A program made the translations under genes and the position numbers. The notes below the pieces were generated by a model that did not search any database, was not told the DNA's origin, and saw only the letters and a list, made by a program, of their open reading frames with translations. A stretch of 64,000 nt of DNA from Alphaproteobacteria bacterium (GTDB taxonomy: Bacteria > Pseudomonadota > Alphaproteobacteria > Rickettsiales > 21-14-0-20-44-7), in assembly GCA_043757405.1 (NCBI GenBank), contig JAYVPI010000016.1, forward strand, positions 143,623 through 207,622, in the 5' to 3' direction. Below, piece by piece: positions 1,319 to 57,667 of the stretch. The stretch's first letter is position 1. Every line of letters starts with the position of its first letter.

Positions 1319-1921
1319 TTATCGACGAGAGGTCTCGGGTTTGCCGAGAGAAGTTTCTATCCTAGTAAGTGTGGTTCTTGTTTTTTCGTGCAGAGACTGC
1401 ATCTCGGTCAGGGTTATACGGCCTCGTTCGCGTTCTTGTAGTATCAAGCCTAGATTTGTGTCTAATCTTTTATCAATTGTCCTAAGTACCCATGAATCTC
1501 CGCGAATTTGCCGTCTGGTGGCATCTTCTTGAATTTTGAAGTCTACAATTTCTTTCAATCGACTGCCTCTGGTAAGTAATGTTCTAGATAATTCGGAATC
1601 GGTTTCGCTTACTCGCGCAGAAACATAAAATTTTTCTTTGCGTTTTTGGGTGGGAGCTTGCCCCCGAGGATTATGAGTAAAGGTGCGAAGAGCAGCAAAT
1701 TGAATGCCGGTCATATTTGTTAGTGTTCTGGTTAAATCTTTAGCTATATGAAAATCTGAGAAACCCCTATCTATCTTAAAATGTAAGCCAACAGTATTTT
1801 TTGAAGAGCGAGAAGAGCCAGAATCTCCAATCTTTTCTCTGATGAGTTCGGCCTTAAAATACTCAATGCCCAGTTTGTTAAATTGGTCGCGAAGTTCTGT
1901 AAAATTATGCTGTTTAGCCAT
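1319..1921 (-). CDS. Hypothetical protein, Arg/Thr-rich, no family recognised
   Basis: ORF track 1319..1936, trimmed to the ATG at 1921 (MAKQHNFTELRDQFNKLGIEYF...). It is a long uninterrupted ORF, AT-richer by eye than the flanking mraZ and EamA genes. Confidence 0.55.
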   Translation of the reverse strand: MAKQHNFTELRDQFNKLGIEYFKAELIREKIGDSGSSRSSKNTVGLHFKIDRGFSDFHIAKDLTRTLTNMTGIQFAALRTFTHNPRGQAPTQKRKEKFYVSARVSETDSELSRTLLTRGSRLKEIVDFKIQEDATRRQIRGDSWVLRTIDKRLDTNLGLILQERERGRITLTEMQSLHEKTRTTLTRIETSLGKPETSRR

Positions 1922-1985
1922 AAGTATAAATAGCATTTCTATATTACACCCTTGTTACATAAGCTCAAAAACGCTATAAAAACAT

Positions 1986-2888
1986 ATGCCTAAATATTCA
2001 AAAGAAACCCTGGGGATTGCCTGGACGCTGGTGTTTTGTGTTAGTTTTCCGATACTTACAGCAATTGTCAGGCATTTGACAGATTTGGGGGTTGGGTCGG
2101 CGCAGTTGGTTTTTATCCGGAATATGGTGGCGATTGGTATCTTGGTTCCGTTTGTTTTCCTGCGCAAAGAAAAAATGGATTTGAAAATTCGCAACCGCTC
2201 GCTTTACTTCATGCGCATCATTTTCGGGCTGACTTCGATGACTTTGTGGTTTTATGGGTTGGGGCGGTTGCCGCTGGCAACGGCGACGGCGCTTAGTTTC
2301 TCGACGCCGATTTTTGCGGCGTTTGCGGCGGTGATATTTCTCAAAGAGAAAATGGGCGTGCGGAGGTGGGCTGCCGTTATTATTGGTTTCCTCGGCACAC
2401 TGATAATTTTGCGGCCGGGGATGGCGGAAGTTAGTTTGCCGGCACTTGCGGTTTTGGGTGGATGTTTTTTTATGTCGATTGCGTTAGTCATCGTCAAAAA
2501 ACTCACCAATACTGAAACGCCCTTCAACATGATGTTTCATATGCATTTATGGATGGGCGTGTTTTCGATTCCGCTTGCTTTCACTCATTGGCACCTGCTT
2601 AATATGAGCATGTTCATCTGGTCCGTGGCGCTGGCGGTTTGTTCCATCATCGGCCATTATTCCCTGGCGCGGGCATATATGCTGGTGGATGTGACGCTGA
2701 CTTTGCCGTTTGATTTCACGCGGTTGATTATCGCCAGCGTGATTGCTTATTTCGCATTCGGGGAAGTACCGGATGTTTATGCATATCTCGGTGCGGGAAT
2801 TATTACCGCCAGCGCCATATTTATCGCGCACCGGGAGGCGAAATTGCGGCGAATTTTGCGGGAGCGGACGGAAGTTGAGCAGATATAA
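1986..2888 (+). CDS. EamA/DMT-family transporter
   Basis: A 300-aa ORF with about ten hydrophobic helices and the duplicated EamA pattern (GLGRLPLATATALSFSTPIFAAF..., YSLARAYMLVDVTLTLPFDF). Confidence 0.8.
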   Translation: MPKYSKETLGIAWTLVFCVSFPILTAIVRHLTDLGVGSAQLVFIRNMVAIGILVPFVFLRKEKMDLKIRNRSLYFMRIIFGLTSMTLWFYGLGRLPLATATALSFSTPIFAAFAAVIFLKEKMGVRRWAAVIIGFLGTLIILRPGMAEVSLPALAVLGGCFFMSIALVIVKKLTNTETPFNMMFHMHLWMGVFSIPLAFTHWHLLNMSMFIWSVALAVCSIIGHYSLARAYMLVDVTLTLPFDFTRLIIASVIAYFAFGEVPDVYAYLGAGIITASAIFIAHREAKLRRILRERTEVEQI

Positions 2889-3920: not shown

Positions 3921-4009
3921 CCGTCATCCTGAGCAACGCGAAGGATCTTTCGCTTGCGCCGTCAAGTTTTGAGTATGCGAAAGATCCTTCGCGTTGCTCA
4001 GGATGACGG
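3921..4009. repeat. MITE-like palindromic element, CGTCAT-terminus family
   Basis: Perfect 33-bp inverted repeat, verified base by base: CCGTCATCCTGAGCAACGCGAAGGATCTTTCGC (3921-3953) pairs with GCGAAAGATCCTTCGCGTTGCTCAGGATGACGG (3977-4009). The loop is 23 nt. It lies between sspB and ctaB. Confidence 0.85.
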
Positions 4010-6216: not shown

Positions 6217-6465
6217 ATGGAATTACCGCGTATTTGTCAAAGATCACCTTATGCAAAGGAGTTGCAGCCCGGTGTTCAATATTCATGGTGCACTTGCGGG
6301 CTTTCAAAAGAAGACCCGTTTTGCGATGGCAGCCATAAGAACCCGGAGCCGACGGGATTTAAGTCCCTGAAATTCTTTGTTAGTGAGGCTGCAAGCTATG
6401 AATTATGTGGGTGTAAGCGCACTCAAAATGCCCCCTATTGTGATGGTAGCCACTGCAGCTTATAA
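6217..6465 (+). CDS. CDGSH iron-sulfur domain protein
   Basis: Two CDGSH-type motifs are present: CTCGLSKEDPFCDGSH and CGCKRTQNAPYCDGSH. Confidence 0.85.
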   Translation: MELPRICQRSPYAKELQPGVQYSWCTCGLSKEDPFCDGSHKNPEPTGFKSLKFFVSEAASYELCGCKRTQNAPYCDGSHCSL

Positions 6466-6655
6466 TTTGCGCTCAAGCGCCGCGCAAGAGAGCTTCCCGG
6501 CCTCAAGAATTAGAATTATGGCCTTGCCCTCCCGATGGTCGCGATACAGAGACTGGTTTAAGAAAAGTGATGCTATGGAATCCGAGCGCCGCGAAGGCAA
6601 GCTCATTGAGGGCGAGAAGCTTGAGCGAAGCGATGCGCGGCGCTTGAGCGCAATT
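6464..6655. repeat. Long palindromic repeat, family 3 (AATTTGCGCTCAAGCGCCGCGC termini), full-length copy
   Basis: The termini AATTTGCGCTCAAGCGCCGCGCA and TGCGCGGCGCTTGAGCGCAATT are inverted repeats, with further internal complementary blocks. Half-length relatives lie at 7106-7175 and 58288-58379. Confidence 0.8.
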
Positions 6656-6723
6656 AATAAAGATTTTACTTTACAGGCGTAAAATTTCCCCTTAAAGGCA
6701 CGATATAAATAGGGACATTAAAA

Positions 6724-7101
6724 ATGGGAATCGGCACTAAAAGAATTTGTCAGGCATGCGCGGCGAAATTTTATGACCTGGAGAAAGATCCGATAAAATG
6801 CCCGAAATGCGCAACAGTATTTAATCCTGAAAGCATTGCCAAACCAAAACGCGGCCGCAAAAAAGCCGGTGCGAAAGAACAGCCTGAGGAAGAAATTGAA
6901 ATTGTGTTGGATGACGAGGTCATTGAAGAATTGGATGACGAAGCGGCAGTTGAAGAACTGGATGACGAAATCCGCGATGAGATGGAACCGGAAGACAGTC
7001 CTGAGCGCCATAAGGGCGAGGATAAGGTTTTGGTGGATCTGGAAGAAGATAACAGTGACATCATCGAATCGGATGATGGGCATATTTCAGATAAGGAATA
7101 G
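6724..7101 (+). CDS. TIGR02300-family zinc-ribbon protein (FYDLN_acid)
   Basis: The N-terminus GTKRICQACAAKFYDLEKDPIKCPKCATVF is followed by a long acidic tail, which is diagnostic of this alphaproteobacterial family. Confidence 0.85.
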   Translation: MGIGTKRICQACAAKFYDLEKDPIKCPKCATVFNPESIAKPKRGRKKAGAKEQPEEEIEIVLDDEVIEELDDEAAVEELDDEIRDEMEPEDSPERHKGEDKVLVDLEEDNSDIIESDDGHISDKE

Positions 7102-7105
7102 TTTT

Positions 7106-7175
7106 AATTTGCGCTCAAGCGCCGCGCATTTTCGCTATGCTCAAGCTGTCGCCCTCAATGGGCTCGCTCGGTCGG
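7106..7175. repeat. Family 3 repeat, half element
   Basis: AATTTGCGCTCAAGCGCCGCGCATTTTCGCTATGCTCAAGCTGTCGCCCTCAATGGGC aligns with the reverse complement of the right half of the 6464-6655 element. Confidence 0.7.
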
Positions 7176-8747: not shown

Positions 8748-8827
8748 CTGTCATCCCGCACTTGTTGCGGGACCTATTGCAAGATTCGGTATATGTAAAT
8801 AGACCCCTCAATAAGTGCGGGGCGACG
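8748..8827. repeat. MITE-like element, CGTCA(C/T)CCCGCACTTGTTGCGGG subfamily
   Basis: CTGTCATCCCGCACTTGTTGCGGGA ... CCCCTCAATAAGTGCGGGGCGACG are imperfect inverted arms. The same arm sequence occurs at 13306 and 27371. Confidence 0.75.
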
Positions 8828-9437: not shown

Positions 9438-9520
9438 TGTCATTCCCGCGCAGGCGGGGATTTTTGCCGGTGTCGATTGTGAAACCATCTGCCAAGATTC
9501 CCGCCTGCGCGGGAATGACA
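9438..9520. repeat. MITE-like element with ATTCCC-N8-GGGAAT type arms
   Basis: TGTCATTCCCGCGCAGGCGGGGA ... TCCCGCCTGCGCGGGAATGACA are near-perfect inverted arms. Each arm is itself a small hairpin. The element lies between the aspartic protease gene and sdhB. Confidence 0.8.
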
Positions 9521-9540: not shown

Positions 9541-10320
9541 TTAAACCTTCCGCGCCACGATCATCTTCTTCGTCTCCGCAATCGCCCGTGCCGGGTTCAA
9601 GCCTTTCGGGCAGGCTTTGGCGCAGTTCATGATGGTGTGGCAGCGGTAGAGTTTGAAAGGGTCTTCTAGGTCGTTTAGGCGCTCTCCCGTGGCTTCGTCG
9701 CGGCTGTCGACCAGCCAGCGATAGGCTTGGAGGAGGACGGCGGGGCCGAGGTAGCGATCGCTGTTCCACCAATAGCTGGGGCAAGAGGTCTGGCAGCAGA
9801 AACAAAGGATGCATTCATATAAGCCGTCTAATTTTGCGCGGTCTTCCGGGCTTTGCAGGCGCTCGGTTGCAGGAGCCGTGGAATCGGCTTTTAGCCAGGG
9901 TTGGATGGATTCTAATTGGGCATAGGCGTGGGTTAGGTCGGGGACTAAATCTTTGACAACGTCCATATGCGGGAGGGGATAAATTTTGGCGTCGCCTTTG
10001 ATTTCGTCGATGGATTTGGTGCAGGCCAGCGTGTTGGTGCCGTCGATGTTCATGGCGCACGACCCGCAGATTCCCTCGCGGCACGAGCGGCGGAAGGTGA
10101 GGGTGGAATCCATTTCGTTTTTGATTTTGATGATGGCGTCCAGCACCATCGGCCCGCATTTGTCGAGATCGACTTCATATGTATCGAGCTGCGGATTGGA
10201 TTCGCCTTCCGGGTTCCAGCGATAGACCTGGAATTTTTTGATGCGCTTGGCATCGGCGGCTTTATAGGTTTTGCCACCTTTTACGACGCGCGAGTTTTTG
10301 GGGAGTACGAATTCAACCAT
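9541..10320 (-). CDS. sdhB: Succinate dehydrogenase iron-sulfur subunit
   Basis: 259 aa with three Fe-S cysteine clusters: [44 protein letters not shown]. Confidence 0.95.
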
Positions 10321-10325
10321 AACTA

Positions 10326-10649
10326 TTATTCCATCTCATCTAGAATTTTCTTAACCGTATTTTTTAACTCATCCAAATCATTGTCAACTACAAAGCGAAC
10401 AGAGTCCATTTCTACATCCAAATATTGATGGATAAGGATGTTTCTGAAAGCGACAATTTCTGCCCAGGGTATATTGTCATATTTAGATTGGATGTCTTTG
10501 CTTAACCTGTTAACAGCCTCTCCGATCTTGATAAGCTCATAAATAATTGCCCGCTCAGCGGTGCGCGGATCGTGGTTTTTCTGGTGATGCCGGATTTCTT
10601 CAATCGCATCCAATATGGAAAGAAGATATTCCCTTTCCTTTCTTTTCAT
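10326..10649 (-). CDS. hepT: HepT-like (DUF86/HEPN) toxin
   Basis: The HEPN Rx4H motif is present ([10 protein letters not shown]). The gene overlaps the upstream nucleotidyltransferase gene by 4 nt. Confidence 0.8.
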
Positions 10650-10930
10650 AGCGGTACCGCTTCAGCTAATATATGGGGGCGAAGGCGGTCTTTAAGTGCC
10701 TTTTCGGTAACTACATCAACTTTCGTTTTCAAGAGTTCAGAAAGGGCCATTATATATCCTGCATAAGCAAACCCTAGCGGCCTGGTGAAACTCACCAGGA
10801 AATCCACATCGGAATTTTGCGTCGCTTCCCCGCGTGCTACGGAGCCGAAAACGCGTATGTCGGAAATGCCATAATTTTTCGACACGGCAAGGATTTGCGG
10901 CTTATATTCGCGGAGCTGATCGAGGTTCAT
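10646..10930 (-). CDS. mntA: MntA-like nucleotidyltransferase antitoxin
   Basis: The minimal NTase motif FGSVARGEATQNSDVDFLV is present. The gene is paired with the HEPN gene. Confidence 0.8.
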   Translation of the reverse strand: MNLDQLREYKPQILAVSKNYGISDIRVFGSVARGEATQNSDVDFLVSFTRPLGFAYAGYIMALSELLKTKVDVVTEKALKDRLRPHILAEAVPL

Positions 10931-10995
10931 AAAGTGGATTATAGGGGGGCGGAATTAAGAATAAATGAAATTATGCAAATAGAGGCTGTTCTCAA

Positions 10996-11397
10996 TCATT
11001 TTGTCCGGCTTTCTACCACAGGTTCCCGCTTTTGGGATGCATAAGTTTCGATTTGCTTTTTTACGGCAAGTATAAAATCCACTACCGGTTCATAAAGACC
11101 TGCTTTAGCATGGGTTAAATCACTGTCTGTTTCAGTCGGTGGTGCGGTATAAATTGTAGCTTCAGCCCATATTAAGTTGCATAAATCTATTGATAATTCG
11201 TAGCTGCGGTCCATTCTTAAACAAATAGTTTGTAGCCTTGTACCTAATTCATGTAGCGCGGAATTTATTGATCGGGCGTCATTAGGAGATTTATCAATTA
11301 AATTCGCGGTTAGTTCTCTTAATCGGACATGATAAAAATCAAATACCAATTTTTCAATTGATTCTAGTTCTTGAGGCAATGGCTTTAATTTCTGCAT
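10996..11397 (-). CDS. Hypothetical helical protein between sdhA and the TA pair
   Basis: A 133-aa ORF, AT-richer by eye, with no family recognised. It runs in the same direction as sdhA and sdhB. Confidence 0.5.
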   Translation of the reverse strand: MQKLKPLPQELESIEKLVFDFYHVRLRELTANLIDKSPNDARSINSALHELGTRLQTICLRMDRSYELSIDLCNLIWAEATIYTAPPTETDSDLTHAKAGLYEPVVDFILAVKKQIETYASQKREPVVESRTK

Positions 11398-11430
11398 AAT
11401 TGTTGATTATGCCAGAATCTTTAATGTAAA

Positions 11431-13287
11431 TCAATAAGTCCGCTTCTTCGCCGGAACCACCTCACACTCATCAGTCAGCGTATACATATGCACCGGCCGG
11501 TAATCGATTTTATGGCTGCCCTTGTCGTCCAGCCAGCAGATTGAGTGTTTTTGCCAGTTTTTGTCGTCGCGTTCCGGGTAGTCTTCGTGGGCGTGGGCGC
11601 CGCGGGATTCGTGGCGGTTTTCGGCGCAGACGATTGTTACCAGGGCTTGGTCGCGCAAGTTGTCCAGTTCCAGCGCTTCCATCAGGTCGCTGTTCCAGAT
11701 CATGCCGCGATCGGTGGTTTTGATGTCGCTGAAAGCGCTGTGGATTTTTTGCATTTTGGCGACGCCTTCTTTTAAACTTTCAGCAGTGCGGAAAACGGCG
11801 GCGTGTTGTTGCATGGTTTTTTGCATGCTTAAACGCAAATCTGCGGTTGGCACTGCGCCGTTGGCGTGGCGGATTTTATCGAATCTTGCCATGGCTTTGT
11901 CACTGCAATTTTTCGGGAGATCGCGATTTTTTTGGCCAGGTTTGATGATTTCCTTGGCGCGGATGGCGGCGGCGCGGCCAAAGACTACCAGGTCGAGGAG
12001 GGAATTGGAGCCGAGGCGGTTGGCACCGTGGACAGAGACGCAGGCGGCTTCACCGATGGCCATCAGGCCCGGGACTATTTCACCGTCGGATGACCCGCCC
12101 CCGGCCCCTCCCTGAGGGAGGGGGGAAGATAAGCCTCCTCCATCAGGGAGGAGGTTGGAGGAGGGTTTTTTGGTCATGACTTCGCCGTGGACATTAGTGG
12201 GGACGCCGCCCATGTTGTAATGTACGGTGGGGAGAACTGGGATTGGTTGTTTGGTGACGTCTACTCCGGCAAAGATTTTGGCGGATTCAGAAATTCCGGG
12301 GAGGCGTTCGTGCAGGATTGCCGGGTCGAGATGGTCGAGGTGTAAGAAGATATGGTCTTTATGTTCGCCGACGCCACGGCCTTCGCGGATTTCCATGGTC
12401 ATCGAGCGGGAGACGACATCGCGTGAGGCTAAATCTTTGGCGTTTGGCGCGTAGCGTTCCATGAAGCGTTCGCCGTTCGAGTTCACTAAATATCCGCCTT
12501 CGCCGCGCGCGCCTTCGGTGATTAAGCAGCCAGCGCCATAAATTCCGGTGGGGTGGAACTGGACGAATTCCATATCTTGTAATGGCAGCCCAGCGCGAAG
12601 GGCCATACCGCCGCCGTCGCCGGTGCAGGTGTGGGCGGAAGTTGCGGAGAAATAGGCGCGGCCATAGCCGCCGGTAGCATTGACGACCATTTTGGCGTTG
12701 AAGCGGTGGATGGAGCCATCATCAAGGCACCAGGCGATGACGCCGACGCATTCGCCTTCGTCATTCATGATGTAATCAAGTGCGAAATATTCGATGAAGA
12801 ATTTGGCTTTGTGTTTTAAGGATTGTTGGTAAAGCGTGTGCAAGATTGCGTGGCCGGTTCTGTCAGCCGCGGCGCAAGTGCGCTGGGCGGTGCCTTTGCC
12901 GTAATCAGTGGTCATACCGCCGAATGGGCGCTGGTAGATTTTGCCTTCCGGAGTGCGGGAGAATGGGACGCCATAATGTTCCAGCTCGATGATCGCGGCG
13001 GGGGCGCTTTGCACCATATATTGGATTGCATCCTGGTCGCCAAGCCAGTCGGAGCCTTTGACGGTGTCGTACATGTGGAAGCGCCAGTCATCCGCGCCCA
13101 TATTGCCAAGCGCGGCAGAAATTCCGCCTTGCGCGGCGACGGTGTGGGAGCGGGTGGGGAAAAGTTTGGTGATGCACGCGGTGCGGAGGCCAGCTTGCGC
13201 CATGCCGAACGTGGCACGAAGCCCAGCGCCACCGGCACCGACTACTACGACGTCATATTCGTGATCGATGATGTTATATGCGGTCAT
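11431..13287 (-). CDS. sdhA: Succinate dehydrogenase flavoprotein subunit, with a 24-aa in-frame repeat-derived insertion
   Basis: Trimmed to [23 protein letters not shown]. The FAD-attachment motif [10 protein letters not shown] and the motif [27 protein letters not shown] are present. The track ORF starts 8 codons further upstream. Confidence 0.95.
12094..12165. repeat. In-frame palindromic insertion inside sdhA (RPE-like)
   Basis: 72 nt encode [24 protein letters not shown]. The DNA contains the hairpins CCCCTCCCTGAGGGAGGGG and CCTCCTCCATCAGGGAGGAGG, related to the element inside murA. Confidence 0.7.
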
Positions 13288-13305
13288 TCTTTCTTCATTC
13301 CTACA

Positions 13306-13425
13306 CGTCACCCCGCACTTGTTGCGGGGTCTGGTTCAAGTGGCACCGGCTTACATGCTGCGCTAATCATCCTTCGCCAAGGCTTCGGATGGCAGGCCGG
13401 ATCGCGCAACAAGTGCGCGATGACG
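13306..13425. repeat. MITE-like element, same subfamily as 27282-27371 in opposite orientation
   Basis: CGTCACCCCGCACTTGTTGCGGGGTCTGGTTCAAGTGGCACCG... ends with ...CCGGATCGCGCAACAAGTGCGCGATGACG. The reverse complement of 27282-27371 aligns along most of its length. This copy carries about 29 extra bp. Confidence 0.8.
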
Positions 13426-13491: not shown

Positions 13492-13746
13492 TTATTTCTT
13501 TGAGACTAATTTTATCTTTGCAGGTTTTGAGAGGGATTTTATTTTGGCTTCGCGGGTTTGGGCGAGGCTGCGGGTTTTAAAGGATTCGGTGTGGAGGAGT
13601 TTGAAGGGGGCTTTGCCGCGCAGGTATTTTGCGCCTTTGCCGGATTCGTGTTCGGCCAGGCGGCGGGTGAGGTCGAGCGTTATGCCGGTGTAATAGGCGC
13701 CGTTATTGCATTCCAAAATATAGAGTTTCCATTTACCACCTGCCAC
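13492..13746 (-). CDS. GIY-YIG nuclease-family protein (YhbQ/UPF0213-like)
   Basis: WKLYILECNNGAYYTGITLDLTRRLAEHESGKGAKYLRGK is the GIY-YIG core. I prefer the GTG start at 13746, because the Ala-rich extension to 13812 overlaps the upstream TPM gene. Confidence 0.7.
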   Translation of the reverse strand: MAGGKWKLYILECNNGAYYTGITLDLTRRLAEHESGKGAKYLRGKAPFKLLHTESFKTRSLAQTREAKIKSLSKPAKIKLVSKK

Positions 13747-14410
13747 TTGCGCCGCCGCCTCCGGAGCTGCCGCCACCACCGCTGAAGCCGCCGCCGCGCC
13801 AGCCGCCGCCACTGGGGATTAGCCAAACGCCAAAGATTATGCGGAAAAGGATGATGATTATGAATATGCCAACAATTAGCCAGGGTGGAATGCCGTCGCT
13901 GTTTTGGGAAATTTCCGGTGGAGCGGTGACGATTTGGCCGCCGCCGAGGACGGTGAGGATAGCTTGGGTGCCGTCGAGAGTGCCGCGTTCGAGTTCGTTG
14001 GTTTTGAATTTGGGGAGGATGAATCTTTGGATTATCTGGCTGCTGATGGCGTCGGTTAATATGCCTTCCAAACCGTAGCCGACTTCGATGCGGACTCGAT
14101 GTTCGGCGGGGGCGACTAATAATAATACGCCGTTGTTTTTATCTTTTTGGCCTAATTGCCAATGGCGGAAAAGTCCGTTGGCATATGGCTCGATTTCGTT
14201 TCCGTCGAGGCTGGGGACGGTGGCGACGACGATTTGTTCCGTAGTGCTGGATTCGTGCGCGGCGAGTTGTTGGGTGAGATCGGATTCGGCTTGGGGCGAT
14301 AATATATGGGCGTTATCGACAACGCGGCCGGTTAGAGTGGGGAATTTTATGGCCGCCAGCGCTGCTCCGGAGATTAGGAACAGTAATAATGCGGTAGTAA
14401 AATATCTCAT
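13733..14410 (-). CDS. TPM-domain (YgcG-like) protein
   Basis: A signal peptide is followed by the TPM pattern (LTGRVVDNAHILSP..., TTEQIVVATVPSL, NGVLLLVAPAEHRVRIEVGYGLEG), a C-terminal TM helix and a Gly-rich tail. Confidence 0.8.
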   Translation of the reverse strand: MRYFTTALLLFLISGAALAAIKFPTLTGRVVDNAHILSPQAESDLTQQLAAHESSTTEQIVVATVPSLDGNEIEPYANGLFRHWQLGQKDKNNGVLLLVAPAEHRVRIEVGYGLEGILTDAISSQIIQRFILPKFKTNELERGTLDGTQAILTVLGGGQIVTAPPEISQNSDGIPPWLIVGIFIIIILFRIIFGVWLIPSGGGWRGGGFSGGGGSSGGGGASGRW

Positions 14411-25930: not shown

Positions 25931-27271
25931 TTATACCTTCACTCTAACAATATCCGCACCCAACCCCTGCAAGCGGCGGGCGATTTTTTCGTAGCCGCGG
26001 TCGATGTGGTAGACGCGGGTGATTTTGGTTTCGCCTTCGGCGGCGAGGGCGGCGATTACGAGGGAGAAGGAGGCGCGGAGGTCGGTGGCCATTACCTCGG
26101 CGGCGTTTAGTTTTTCGATGCCGGTGACGATTGCGGTGTTGCCGGTGACTTTGATTTTTGCGCCCATTCTTGAGAGTTCGGGAACGTGCATGAAGCGGTT
26201 TTCGAAGATGGTTTCCTCAATTTTGCTAATCCCGGTGGCCAGTGTCATCAAAGTCATGAATTGTGCCTGCATATCGGTGGGGAATCCGGGATATGGTTCG
26301 GTGATAATGTTAATTGATTTTATTTCTTTGGGTTTTTTTACGCGCAAGCCATGCGCGGTTTTTTCGACATAAACTCCGGCTTCTTCGAATTTGTGGAGGA
26401 CGGCGCCTAAGTGGTCGGCGTTGGCGTTTATAAGTTCGATTTCGCCGCCGGTGATGGCGGATGCGGCGATGAAGCTGCCGGTTTCGATACGGTCGGCGAC
26501 GGTGGTGTGTTCGGCCCCGTTCAAAGTTTCGACGCCTTGGATGGTGATGCGGTTAGTGCCGATGCCGGTGATTTTGGCGCCCATCTTTATCAAACATTCG
26601 CATAAGTCGGTGATTTCTGGCTCTTGCGCGGCGTTATTTAAAACAGTTTCGCCTTTTGCCAAAGTTGCGGCCATCAATATATTTTCAGTGGCGCCGACGG
26701 AAACTTTTTCAAAAAATATTTCAGCAGCTTTCAGTTTTTTGCATTTGGCGATGACATAGCCGTCGGTAATTTCGATTTCTGCGCCCATTTTTTCCAGTGC
26801 TTTCAAATGTAGATCAACCGGCCGGGAGCCGATGGCGCAGCCGCCGGGGAGGGAGACTTTGGCCTGGCCGAAACGCGCAAGCAATGGGCCGAGGACGATA
26901 ATGGAGGCGCGCATTAGTTTCACCAATTCATATGGCGCGGTAAGGTCGGTGATGTTGTCGGCTTGGAGGCGCAATGAATTCTCCTCTCCCTCAGGGAGAG
27001 GTTGGGAGAGGGTTGGTTGTTGTGAGCTGAGAGTTTCCAACCCTCCGCCCAACCTCCTCCCTGAGGGAGGAGGGGAAGAAATTTTTACGCCGTGATGGAC
27101 AAGCAAGCGCGACATGGTGGTGATATCGGCGAGTTGTGGGATGTTGTGCAGAATGAGAGGTTTATCAGTGAGCAGCGCGGCACACATAAGTTTCAGCGCG
27201 GAGTTTTTAGCGCCGCCGATTTTGACCCGTCCTTTTAGTGGAGTGCCGCCTTTGATAATTAGGGAGTCCAT
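25931..27271 (-). CDS. murA: UDP-N-acetylglucosamine 1-carboxyvinyltransferase, with a 33-aa in-frame repeat-derived insertion
   Basis: The MurA sequence is recognisable (GGAKNSALKLMCAALL, KLMRASIIVLGPLLARFG, GGCAIGSRPVDLHLKALE) but is interrupted by [33 protein letters not shown]. Confidence 0.95.
   Translation of the reverse strand: MDSLIIKGGTPLKGRVKIGGAKNSALKLMCAALLTDKPLILHNIPQLADITTMSRLLVHHGVKISSPPPSGRRLGGGLETLSSQQPTLSQPLPEGEENSLRLQADNITDLTAPYELVKLMRASIIVLGPLLARFGQAKVSLPGGCAIGSRPVDLHLKALEKMGAEIEITDGYVIAKCKKLKAAEIFFEKVSVGATENILMAATLAKGETVLNNAAQEPEITDLCECLIKMGAKITGIGTNRITIQGVETLNGAEHTTVADRIETGSFIAASAITGGEIELINANADHLGAVLHKFEEAGVYVEKTAHGLRVKKPKEIKSINIITEPYPGFPTDMQAQFMTLMTLATGISKIEETIFENRFMHVPELSRMGAKIKVTGNTAIVTGIEKLNAAEVMATDLRASFSLVIAALAAEGETKITRVYHIDRGYEKIARRLQGLGADIVRVKV
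26981..27079. repeat. In-frame palindromic insertion inside murA (RPE-like)
   Basis: A 99-nt imperfect palindrome reads CCTCTCCCTCAGGGAGAGG TTGGGAGAGGGTTGG ... CCAACCCTCCGCCCAA CCTCCTCCCTGAGGGAGGAGG. There is no stop in the murA frame, and the element is related to 12094-12165. Confidence 0.75.
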
Positions 27272-27281
27272 TTTAAATCCT

Positions 27282-27371
27282 CGTCATCGCGGACTTGTTC
27301 CGCGATCTGGTTAGCGAAGCATGAAAGACGGTGCCACTTGAACCAGACCCCGTGACAAGCACGGGGTGACG
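27282..27371. repeat. MITE-like element between pheA and murA
   Basis: CGTCATCGCGGACTTGTTCCGCGATCTGG ... CCAGACCCCGTGACAAGCACGGGGTGACG. This is the reverse-orientation relative of 13306-13425. Confidence 0.8.
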
Positions 27372-27388
27372 TTGTGAGGGTGTGGACA

Positions 27389-28228
27389 TTATTTCTTAAA
27401 CCGCTCCGGATCCGCAGCATAAACGCCTAACAACTTTACCTTTTTGGTAAAGAAGCCGAGTTCCTCTAATGCATATTGCACATTTCGCTGTTTCGGGTGG
27501 CCCTGGAAGCTGATGAAGAAATCGGCGTTGTCGGATTTGCCGCCTGGAATATAGCTTTCGAGTTTTACCAGGTTGACGTTGTTGGTGGCGAAGCCGCCTA
27601 AGGATTTGTAGAGGGCGGCGGGCATGTTGCGGATGGTTACCAGCAAGGTGGTGATGGTGGTTTGTTCGTCTTTTGGCTCGACTGGTTCTTTGCCGATTAC
27701 GATGAATACGGTCATGTTGGTTTGGGCGTCTTCGAAGTTGCGTTTGAGAATATCCAAACCATAGATTTCGGCGGCGAGTTCGGAGCCGATTGCGGCGCGG
27801 GCGGGGTTTTTCTCAGTGCCAATGGTCTGGGCGGCCAGCGCCGTGTTTTCGGCGTTTTTAGCCACTAACCCCAATTTCTGGATGTTTTTCTTGCATTGCA
27901 TCAGGGCCATTGGATGCGAGAGAACTTCTTTAACAGCTTCAATTTTGGCGCCTTTGGGGGCCATCAGGAAATGCTCGACGCGCTGGAAATGCTCGGCGAC
28001 GATGTGGAGGTTGGTTTCCACTAATATATTATGTACTTCCGCGACCCGGCCGGCATAAGAGTTTTCGATCGGAATCATCCCAAGTTCGGCGTGTCCGCTT
28101 TCCACGGCCTCGAAAACCTCGTCGAAAGTCGGGCAGGCGAGGGTGTCCATATATGGGTATGCCTTGCGGCAGGCCAAATCGGAATGTGCGCCTTGTGCGC
28201 CTTGGAAAGCTATAATGTTCTTAGTCAT
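27389..28228 (-). CDS. pheA: Prephenate dehydratase
   Basis: The PDT domain (IAFQGAQGAHSDLA, IPIENSYAGRV) is followed by a C-terminal ACT domain (TTLLVTIRNMPAALYKSLGGFA, LVKLESYIPGG). Confidence 0.9.
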   Translation of the reverse strand: MTKNIIAFQGAQGAHSDLACRKAYPYMDTLACPTFDEVFEAVESGHAELGMIPIENSYAGRVAEVHNILVETNLHIVAEHFQRVEHFLMAPKGAKIEAVKEVLSHPMALMQCKKNIQKLGLVAKNAENTALAAQTIGTEKNPARAAIGSELAAEIYGLDILKRNFEDAQTNMTVFIVIGKEPVEPKDEQTTITTLLVTIRNMPAALYKSLGGFATNNVNLVKLESYIPGGKSDNADFFISFQGHPKQRNVQYALEELGFFTKKVKLLGVYAADPERFKK

Positions 28229-28321
28229 TAGTCATTAGTCATAAGTCATTAGGAAATTGTTTTCAACTCAACAGTTATAATTTATAGTATCTAATGACCA
28301 ATGACTAATGACTAATAACTA
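28222..28321. repeat. Inverted pair of 4x tandem heptamers (ATGACTA) bracketing the pheA/nadK divergent region
   Basis: The left arm at 28222-28252 is TAGTCAT x3 + AAGTCAT + TAG. The right arm at 28291-28321 is CTA + ATGACCA ATGACTA ATGACTA ATAACTA. The arms match 28/31 as inverted repeats, with a 38-nt AT-rich spacer. The pheA ATG is part of the outermost heptamer. Confidence 0.8.
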
Positions 28322-28323
28322 AG

Positions 28324-29103
28324 ATGAAATACAAAAAAATCGCCATAATCGCCGATGATTCGCCCAAAGCGCAGGAAACTGCGGCTCGGCTGAAGTATCT
28401 TTATGACTTTTTGAACCGCGATATCAAGCCGGAAAAAGCGGATTGCGTGGTGGTTTTGGGTGGGGACGGGTTCATGCTGCACTCACTGCACCGGCTGATG
28501 GATTATGATATTCCGGTGTTTGGGATGAATGCGGGGACGATCGGGTTTTTGCTCAATAGTTATAATGAGAAGGATTTGCTGGAACGCATTGAAACCGCGG
28601 AAGAGGCGACTTTGCATCCGCTGGAGATGATCGCGACTTGCGTCGATGGGACGAAGCATTTGAAGCTGGCGGTGAACGAAATTTCATTGCTAAGGGAAAC
28701 TGCTCAAGCCGCCAAAATCCGCGTTAGCGTGGATAATAAAGTGCAGTTGGAAGAGATGATTTGCGACGGGGTGATTGTTTCGACTCCGGCGGGCAGCACA
28801 GCATATAATTTTTCGGCGAACGGGCCGGTGGTGCCTTTGAACTCCAATTTGCTGGCGCTGACGCCAATCAGCGTTTTCCGGCCACGGCGCTGGCGGGGGG
28901 CGTTGTTGCCATCAAATAAGGTAATATCGCTGGATATACTGGAAGTGGCGAAACGGCCGGTTTCGGCAGTGGCGGATTTCTACGAGATTCGTGACGTGGT
29001 CGAGGTGCATATCCGCGAGGAACGCAAGAAAACCATGCGGATTCTCTTCGATTCCCACAATTCGTTGCACGAGCGGATTATTAAGGAGCAATTTATTCTT
29101 TGA
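28324..29103 (+). CDS. nadK: NAD kinase
   Basis: The motifs VVVLGGDGFMLH, NEISL and DGVIVSTPAGSTAYNFSANGP are present. Confidence 0.9.
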   Translation: MKYKKIAIIADDSPKAQETAARLKYLYDFLNRDIKPEKADCVVVLGGDGFMLHSLHRLMDYDIPVFGMNAGTIGFLLNSYNEKDLLERIETAEEATLHPLEMIATCVDGTKHLKLAVNEISLLRETAQAAKIRVSVDNKVQLEEMICDGVIVSTPAGSTAYNFSANGPVVPLNSNLLALTPISVFRPRRWRGALLPSNKVISLDILEVAKRPVSAVADFYEIRDVVEVHIREERKKTMRILFDSHNSLHERIIKEQFIL

Positions 29104-57637: not shown

Positions 57638-57667
57638 CCGTCATTGCGGGCTTGACCCGCAATGACA
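57638..57667 (+). terminator. Hairpin (single-arm CGTCAT-family unit) followed by a T-run, candidate intrinsic terminator
   Basis: The 11-bp stem of GTCATTGCGGG-CTTG-ACCCGCAATGAC is followed by AATATTTTTTATTT, 5 nt after the phaC-like stop. Confidence 0.5.

Follow-up and report, generated by a model that had tools for sequence, protein, structure and literature searches.

A 72-nt in-frame insertion in sdhA is probably a tolerated inverted doublet of BoxC / PIT triplex-motif units

BoxC / PIT repeats, which are also described as triplex motifs, have been known since the 1990s, and we know of no function or mobilisation mechanism for them. Rickettsia palindromic elements (RPEs) are AT-rich repeats of ~100-150 bp that are known only from Rickettsia and add family-specific conserved peptides. 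In this study, a 72-nt palindromic segment within the gene sdhA and a sister element within murA were compared with these and related families. Both genes are located on a 64-kb stretch of contig JAYVPI010000016.1, which is designated the window in the following; coordinates without further specification refer to it. Holder et al. (Nucleic Acids Res 2015; PMC4666352) described the BoxC / PIT / 'TMECO' sequence as an intrastrand triplex motif and counted 3610 TMECO copies in 262 proteobacterial genomes. A TMECO single strand forms a stable class II triplex in vitro, as seen by circular dichroism and nuclear magnetic resonance, and TMECO has neither promoter nor terminator activity (PMC4666352). 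In E. coli MG1655 there are five inverted pairs, which always combine a type A unit (TTA loop) with a type B unit (CCG loop; PMC4666352).

RPEs (Ogata et al. 2000, 2002), as summarised in a review (PMC10969869), are palindromic repeats of non-coding type that lie in frame inside unrelated alphaproteobacterial housekeeping genes. The peptide that they contribute is placed where the fold of the protein allows it, and orthologues lack them. [quoted passage not shown]

In the program-made list of open reading frames (ORFs), sdhA is an ORF of 626 codons on the minus strand (11431-13311) that extends to a GTG at 13311. The true start is probably the MTAYN at 13287; the resulting coding sequence of 618 amino acids (11431..13287) rests on the ORF list, the structure match and the checked translation from 13287. 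The protein matches solved complex II flavoproteins (SdhA structures) with E = 8e-263 and is 100% identical to the database protein P0001. The original prediction had placed a 72-nt hairpin repeat in frame within sdhA at 12094-12165, and both the sequence and the translated ORF bear this out. The segment (12094..12165, minus strand) reads CCCGCCCCCGGCCCCTCCCTGAGGGAGGGGGGAAGATAAGCCTCCTCCATCAGGGAGGAGGTTGGAGGAGGG in window letters, with CCCCTCCCTGAGGGAGGGG at 12105-12123 and CCTCCTCCATCAGGGAGGAGG at 12134-12154, followed by TTGGAGGAGGG. It adds 24 residues rich in Gly, Pro, Ser and Leu, which are preceded by ...HGEVMTKK on the N-terminal side. Within the FAD-binding region, the insert is located where the chain turns from one β-strand to the next, ~10 residues ahead of a conserved SdhA block. 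Its GC content is 0.71, compared to 0.56 for the remainder of sdhA. The 72-mer is open in three of six frames, and the unused alternative readings are rich in LREE and RGR. The core motif of the element occurs eight times, compared to 0.78 expected occurrences; the occurrence of the insert exceeds chance. Note that the boundary of the insert is uncertain by ~3 nt, because the last GGG codon may be a native Gly.

Homologues of SdhA were searched among 5.8 billion proteins. The insert is absent from all ten nearest ones (81-87% identity, 594-596 amino acids), and the closest relatives of the window MurA likewise lack the murA element. In the DNA of the nearest relative (L001), ACC AAG AAA is directly joined to GGC AGT GAA, which constitutes the empty site; at the filled site in the window, ACC AAA AAA is followed by the 72 nt and by TCA TCC GAC. 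The DNA alignment of the window gene with its nearest homologue has a clean gap of 69-72 nt, and the alignment with the solved SdhA structures has a gap of 22 residues at the point of insertion. Furthermore, the distance from HYNMGG to GLMA is exactly 22 residues in 106 of 114 SdhA homologues. The segment is therefore not a normal variable loop, which the original prediction had named as a possible refutation. Judged from these alignments, it is to be regarded as a true insertion.

Long loops at this position were found in five of the 114 homologues: the window protein, a three-member clade with an unrelated insert, and one other. The best named relatives of the window SdhA are metagenome-assembled genomes (MAGs) labelled 'Rickettsiales / Alphaproteobacteria bacterium', with ~75% identity. 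An SdhA clade that is ~75% identical (P0019, P0112, P0100) has a different insert of 15-22 amino acids at the same β-turn. For P0019, the inserted DNA (L003 1322-1405) forms three hairpins, among them a perfect 9-bp stem GGATCTCGT...ACGAGATCC (z -4.2), and does not represent a triplex-motif unit. At this β-turn, P0005 (L002) contains 13 additional amino acids, whose DNA shows no significant fold.

It could be argued that a repeat was misjoined into sdhA during assembly or binning, as the contig is possibly metagenome-derived and palindromic repeats are hard to assemble. We give this explanation next to no credence, because the insertion is exactly 72 nt long, free of stop codons and in frame within an otherwise 87%-conserved gene. 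Moreover, a second insertion of the same family lies in frame in murA, and independent assemblies (L126, L127, L128, L036 and L050) show the like.

The units that make up both elements were located by means of a triplex scan, which is a re-implementation of the published ITxF-like class II rule with pyrimidine, purine and purine stems. It accepts C.G*G and T.A*A/T triads, stems of 6-15 nt, loops of 1-6 nt and at most one mismatched triad. On both strands of the window (128 kb), exactly four class II G/C-rich motifs with stems of 9-10 nt and one mismatch apiece were detected, all of them in sdhA or murA; 60 dinucleotide-shuffled windows contained none. The plan of a unit is the same at both loci: a pyrimidine stem, a loop of 3-4 nt, a purine stem, a loop of 2-3 nt, a second purine arm, and a T. 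The third arm mirrors the second one.

Unit sdhA-1 (12093..12123, minus strand) reads CCCCTCCC(T)-C-(A)GGGAGGGG-CCG-GGGGCGGG(T) in the triplex scan, which corresponds to CCCCTCCC-TCA-GGGAGGGG-CCG-GGGGCGGG-T with the hairpin loop written out. With CCG as its second loop this unit is type-B-like, and one of its triads is mismatched. The spacer GGAAGATAAG (10 nt, 12124..12133) is the loop of the long palindrome and is followed by unit sdhA-2 (12134..12166, plus strand), CCTCCTCC-ATCA-GGGAGGAGG-TT-GGAGGAGG-GT. This unit is type-A-like (TTG second loop) and is supported by the triplex scan, by a match of the covariance model R1 introduced below, and by near-identity to murA-2. The coding sequence of murA (25931..27271, minus strand; 446 amino acids, P0121) contains unit murA-1 (26982..27013, plus strand), (T)CCTCTCCC-TCA-GGGAGAGG-TTG-GGAGAGGG-T, and unit murA-2 (27040..27073, minus strand), CCTCCTCCC-TCA-GGGAGGAGG-TTG-GGCGGAGGG-T, both recognised by the triplex scan and by R1. 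The spacer between them (27014..27039) is, according to the fold, the loop of the long palindrome.

The order of parts in sdhA is hence unit(-), 10 nt, unit(+) with the third arms outside, and in murA unit(+), 26 nt, unit(-) with the hairpins outside. The elements are 72-92 bp long and G/C-rich, and each of them folds as one long hairpin, because its two units are mutually inverted. The two hairpins that had been noticed beforehand in the sdhA insert are present as described; what has to be added is that they also pair with each other to give one long imperfect palindrome. Folding computations, in which Watson-Crick pairing only was considered, yielded -25.7 kcal/mol (z -4.5) for the DNA and -48.7 kcal/mol (z -3.5) for the mRNA of the sdhA element. 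The corresponding z values of the murA element are -7.4 and -7.2.

The top local alignment of the insert elsewhere in the window is with murA 27040-27073 and has a score of 49; the runner-up has 22. Among 2000 dinucleotide shuffles of the insert none reached this score (mean 21.7, sd 3.4, max 39), and the outcome was the same when both the insert and the murA element were shuffled. Units sdhA-2 and murA-2 are identical in 31 of 33 aligned positions; the two differences would fit gene conversion or a source shared in the fairly recent past. The proposed parallel between the two elements thus withstood the formal alignment that had been set beforehand as its possible refutation, and the matches of R1 support it as well. 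By sequence, the segments in sdhA and murA represent one kind of element.

A low-complexity loop that grew locally in sdhA by slippage or duplication, and resembles murA by shared composition, would agree with the low complexity and the GC content of the insert, and also with the variability of the SdhA turn in a few other lineages. The shuffles, however, preserve composition, and in 0 of 2000 cases was the observed similarity attained. Furthermore, a model trained on units from other organisms matches the insert with E ~1e-6 to 1e-7, the flanking sdhA sequence has no resemblance to the units, and the three-arm mirror architecture is specific. A local origin is highly improbable and already largely refuted.

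The covariance model R1 was built from 18 units, which were solely E. coli TMECO copies (PMC4666352, Table 1) and copies from other phyla. R1 matched murA-2 (46.2 bits, E = 2.1e-12), murA-1 (36.1 bits, E = 2.7e-9) and sdhA-2 (28.4 bits, E = 5.8e-7) over their full length, and sdhA-1 in the hairpin part only (E = 8.5e-6). In the rest of the window there was nothing below E = 0.1 besides opposite-strand readings of the same hairpins. As in BoxC / PIT / TMECO, a C-rich stem is followed by a loop of 3-4 nt, a G-rich stem, a loop of 2-3 nt, a G-rich arm in mirror order, and G/T at the end. Both pair orientations exist in E. coli, where pairs 1+2 are similar to murA and pair 17+18 is similar to sdhA. 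The sdhA pair consists of a TTG-loop unit and a CCG-loop unit, which are inverted and 10 nt apart, and this agrees with the pairing of types A and B; the murA pair has two TTG second loops.

There are also differences. The E. coli copies are intergenic, whereas both loci of the window lie in frame inside intact coding sequences and are translated. The stems deviate from the strict consensus, and the spacer of the sdhA pair is merely 10 nt long. As the strict TMECO regular expression fails, the units were assigned to the triplex-motif family as a variant subfamily and not to TMECO proper. On the strength of the R1 matches and the shared plan, we regard the window units as a variant of the published BoxC / PIT / TMECO family and not as a new element.

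The position of the insert in the protein was assessed with an AlphaFold2 model of SdhA that was computed from 120 homologues (predicted local distance difference test, pLDDT, 73.5; predicted template modelling score 0.83). An earlier model from 19 sequences (pLDDT 52.7) was set aside as too poor. Residues 375-400 are modelled as coil with a pLDDT of ~25 between the confident β-strands 369-372 and 403-410. The insert is therefore predicted to extend a β-hairpin turn just ahead of the conserved block, and it is probably a disordered 24-residue surface loop. With regard to the fold-compatible sites of RPEs, what the model shows here is a low-confidence coil (pLDDT ~25) between confident strands, which is consistent with a surface loop. 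By analogy with RPEs, the insert is most likely a tolerated passenger.

We consider it probable that the 72-nt segment as a whole is explained as an inverted doublet of BoxC / PIT / triplex-motif units that is tolerated as a passenger. In single-stranded DNA, units arranged in this way would give rise to an intrastrand triplex of the class II purine-motif type. The doublet would have entered sdhA after the split from the relatives at 87% SdhA identity, and would persist because it comprises a number of nucleotides divisible by three, the frame in use is free of stop codons, and the loop tolerates extra residues. The resulting Gly/Pro/Ser-rich loop may then be a neutral passenger. As to how the doublet arrived, our preferred guess is non-autonomous mobilisation, or copying mediated by repair or recombination, that would act on a hairpin- or triplex-forming single strand, after which selection would narrow the survivors to a few permissive loops. 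The in-frame state may largely reflect a survivorship filter, because only stop-free insertions with a multiple of three nucleotides can persist in such genes. MurA is essential, and SdhA belongs to the respiratory core without being strictly essential in all bacteria. The claim that two essential enzymes carry the same element in frame is thus correct for the frame in both genes; it goes too far for sdhA with respect to essentiality.

Alternatively, the 24-residue loop might have been kept for a new property of SdhA such as an interaction, regulation or stability, with the DNA repeat being mere raw material. The intact ORF with its preserved frame is in line with this, as is the fact that the used frame yields a benign flexible peptide instead of the LREE/RGR-rich alternatives. 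However, the peptide is conserved in no other SdhA and is predicted to be disordered, the same family yields differing peptides in MurA, MurE and an HI0933-like protein (see below), and the DNA palindrome wholly accounts for the peptide sequence. An adaptive role is therefore very unlikely.

Several points weigh against a mobile triplex-motif doublet that is tolerated in sdhA. The strict TMECO consensus CCCTCNCCC-N3-6-GGGNGAGGG-N3-GGGNGAGGG[GTC-] has no match on either strand of the window, whose units have the stems CCTCCTCC, CCCCTCCC and CCTCTCCC and not CCCTCNCCC. Their core stems are just 8-9 nt long, and the third arm of sdhA-1 is unmatched by R1. With respect to the triplex itself, none was detected in vivo for TMECO, and RNA does not form purine-motif triplexes (PMC4666352). 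The 23 TMECO copies of E. coli MG1655 are 'always intergenic', and TMECO was found to be 'not associated with transposons, phages or plasmids' (PMC4666352). As the published family is intergenic in E. coli and unlinked to mobile elements, mobility itself has to be inferred. There is no target-site duplication at either filled site (sdhA of the window compared with L001; murA of the window compared with L129). The neutrality of the loop is suggested by a model of medium quality and by analogy. Finally, the sdhA insertion is carried by one genome only, and the databases searched contain no strain closer than 87% SdhA identity; because of this single genome, timing, polymorphism and selection on the peptide are not measurable. 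The original prediction of an 'actively spreading' element is not sustained by these data: the window has two loci only, no closer strain is at hand, target-site duplications are lacking, and no transposase was found, none having been searched for.

The published survey had reported TMECO for Proteobacteria only (PMC4666352). In this study, one genome per species was scanned with the pattern CCCTCAGGGAG-N2-3-GTTGG-N1-3-GAGGG. The scan yielded at least 126 matches at more than 120 loci, and the matches listed are from Dehalococcoidia, Gamma-, Alpha- and Deltaproteobacteria, Cyanobacteria, Bacteroidota, Planctomycetota and Methylomirabilis. An identical 33-mer, CCCTCTCCCTCAGGGAGAGGGTTGGGGTGAGGG, accounts for 77 of the 126 among the matches listed and occurs in at least seven phyla (L004-L123). 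The three arms covary according to the mirror (triplex) rule, as in CCTTCTCCC/GGGAGAAGG/GGATGAGGG at at least 14 loci and also in CCCCCTCCC/GGGAGGGGG/GGGGGAGGG. A metagenome scan with the window-specific variant gave two loci. None of 2.9 million viral contigs matched the consensus unit. A plasmid megablast likewise gave no match, which is weak evidence, as the low-complexity filter of BLAST may have masked the query. In Dehalococcoidia, the unit is located at the 3' end of a ~110-nt repeat, and the flanks are conserved over only ~110 nt. No conserved ORF is adjacent to the Dehalococcoidia copies, which hence give no lead to a transposase.

Besides sdhA, triplex-motif units were found in frame in three further proteins. 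With its 446 residues, the window MurA exceeds its closest relatives (418-421 amino acids, 73-77% identical), which lack the insert, by ~26 residues. The empty site in L129 reads K-L-S-S-A-G-E-N and the filled site of the window K-I-S-S-[30 aa]-E-N. The same MurA turn is occupied by triplex-motif composites in two further alphaproteobacterial proteins, P0128 (L127, GCA_964545245.1) and P0142 (L128, GCA_033763575.1). The composites lie at L127 4584-4740, L128 8195-8300 and window 26982-27073; the one in L127 comprises two full units plus extra hairpins, which add ~50 residues. Each insert-bearing MurA is nested among relatives without insert, and the hairpins are read in three phases (PPPSGRR, PSPEGR and PPPLRGG). 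Both findings argue for three independent gains.

In MurE, a single unit CCCTCGCCCTCAGGGAGAGGGTTGGGGTGAGGG is translated in frame as LPPRPQGEGWGEG within the Mur_ligase_C domain (L036 816-852; L050 6812-6848). The hosts are two Geobacteraceae, namely a Geobacteraceae MAG and a Pelobacter MAG, and the unit occupies the orthologous position. A composite of the murA type is in frame (TPLPQGEDGRGFVLLSSHSLTLHPTSSLREEE; L126 2267-2358) in a gene for an HI0933-like flavoprotein (1551-2675, minus strand) on a contig from a soil or other environmental metagenome. In the cross-phylum sample, these MurE cases are the only copies in genuine genes (2 of 126 among the matches listed). Intragenic triplex-motif copies are rare in general, yet recurrent. 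Most long ORFs over triplex-motif units in other genomes lack any Pfam domain and were regarded as spurious.

Recurrence at the same turns raises the question of targeted homing, in which doublets would be steered to certain DNA contexts such as A-rich runs before a β-turn codon or replication and repair intermediates. The repeated loop insertions in MurA and SdhA would then reflect the mechanism of insertion and not random insertion followed by filtering. In favour of homing, seemingly independent gains occupy one and the same inter-strand turn of MurA in three lineages, and murA holds one of the very few triplex-motif copies in the 17 kb of L128 and in the 64 kb of the window. The SdhA turn carries unrelated inserts elsewhere (the L003 clade with its three hairpins, z -4.2, and P0005), and the left flanks in the lineage studied here are A-rich (ACCAAAAAA, GTAAAAATTTCTT, ATCAAAATAA). 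A selection filter alone, however, gives the same pattern, as few loops of MurA and SdhA tolerate 25-30 extra residues, and this filter is the explanation given for RPEs (PMC10969869). Moreover, L127 and L128 have flanks that are not similarly A-rich, there is neither a target-site duplication nor a conserved target motif, and the sample is tiny. We thus regard homing as an unlikely explanation, and a target preference of the doublets beyond filtering by selection is similarly doubtful. If it were true, the intragenic copies with their clean empty sites would be a first handle on how the 30-year-old BoxC / PIT family moves, and across phyla the family would remodel loops on the surface of core enzymes (MurA, SdhA, MurE, HI0933).

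Insertion of a doublet followed by filtering through selection resembles what is described for RPEs: in sdhA and murA, too, palindromic repeats are in frame in protein-coding genes and are absent from orthologues. In contrast to the AT-rich and genus-specific RPEs, the elements of the window are 72-92 bp long and G/C-rich, have the triplex-motif architecture, and belong to a family that occurs in many phyla. Note that this distinction is based on the description of RPEs. Like MITEs and REPINs, the elements are small, have inverted repeats at their ends and a long hairpin, are dispersed over the genome, and occasionally lie in frame inside genes, as is the case for ERIC, BOX and others. The two units constitute the inverted repeats, the whole element is one hairpin, and it contains no coding gene of its own. 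Unlike MITEs, the filled sites in sdhA and murA show no target-site duplication, and unlike MITEs and REPINs, the family has no known parent insertion sequence or RAYT-type transposase, none having been searched for here.

BoxC / PIT / triplex-motif repeats show nearly base-for-base conservation between phyla and are strictly intergenic in E. coli. Their in-frame copies in conserved genes provide exact pairs of filled and empty sites, which define the ends of the element and show that no target site was duplicated. As copies are present or absent between relatives, the family can be taken to move. Inserts of this kind can mislead gene callers, alignments and marker-gene phylogenies that make use of sdhA or murA. 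The identity of the family and RPE-like behaviour were both already known; their combination, a triplex-motif family with in-frame palindromic insertion, was not found described in the literature searched.

In the window (9541-13311), three inserted genes part sdhA from sdhB: a HepT toxin (10326-10649), an MNT nucleotidyltransferase antitoxin (10646-10930), and a 133-amino-acid ORF with no Pfam match (10996-11397). At the same place, L001 has an ORF of 646 amino acids, L002 an ORF of 191 amino acids plus a methyltransferase, and L003 an MNT/HepT pair. As the relatives carry differing cargo there, the sdhA-sdhB junction looks like an insertion hot spot. Directly upstream of sdhA lies a small ORF with a GIY-YIG nuclease domain (106 amino acids, 13492-13812), whose N-terminus is rich in Ala and overlaps the C-terminus, rich in Gly, of the adjoining TPM-domain gene.

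A second, unrelated palindromic family (GTCAYCCCGCACTTGTTGCGGGRYC..., 65 nt, 88% complementary between copies) is present at 13305-13369, 27308-27372 and 8750-8783. Since its members lie directly upstream of sdhA and murA, the genes with triplex-motif inserts also share an upstream repeat. Additional intergenic palindromes and repeat families were found at 3921-4009, 9438-9520, 50075-50099 / 57639-57663 and 6460-7129; examples are CCGTCATCCTGAGCAACGCGAAGGATC..., whose 33-nt arms are perfect, as well as TGTCATTCCCGCGCAGGCGGG... and ATTGCGGGTCAAGCCCGCAATGACG. REP-like repeats are abundant in the genome.

Several other classifications of the two elements were rejected. In Rfam, only sub-threshold microRNA-like hairpin noise was obtained over the sdhA and murA elements. 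An intein was dismissed, as there are no such domains and only 24 amino acids, and a terminator, because of the location within a coding sequence. The element was likewise considered as a CRISPR or tandem repeat, and this was rejected. No tRNA, tmRNA or Rfam RNA at gathering level was found in the window (1-64000). Just downstream of the prephenate dehydratase gene that neighbours murA, there is an inverted repeat (28217-28324) whose arms are heptamer tandem arrays (TTAGTCA)n of 34 nt with 91% complementarity; a weak microRNA-like Rfam match at this position was treated as noise. The GC skew is positive across the window and the cumulative skew rises monotonically, which is consistent with one replichore.

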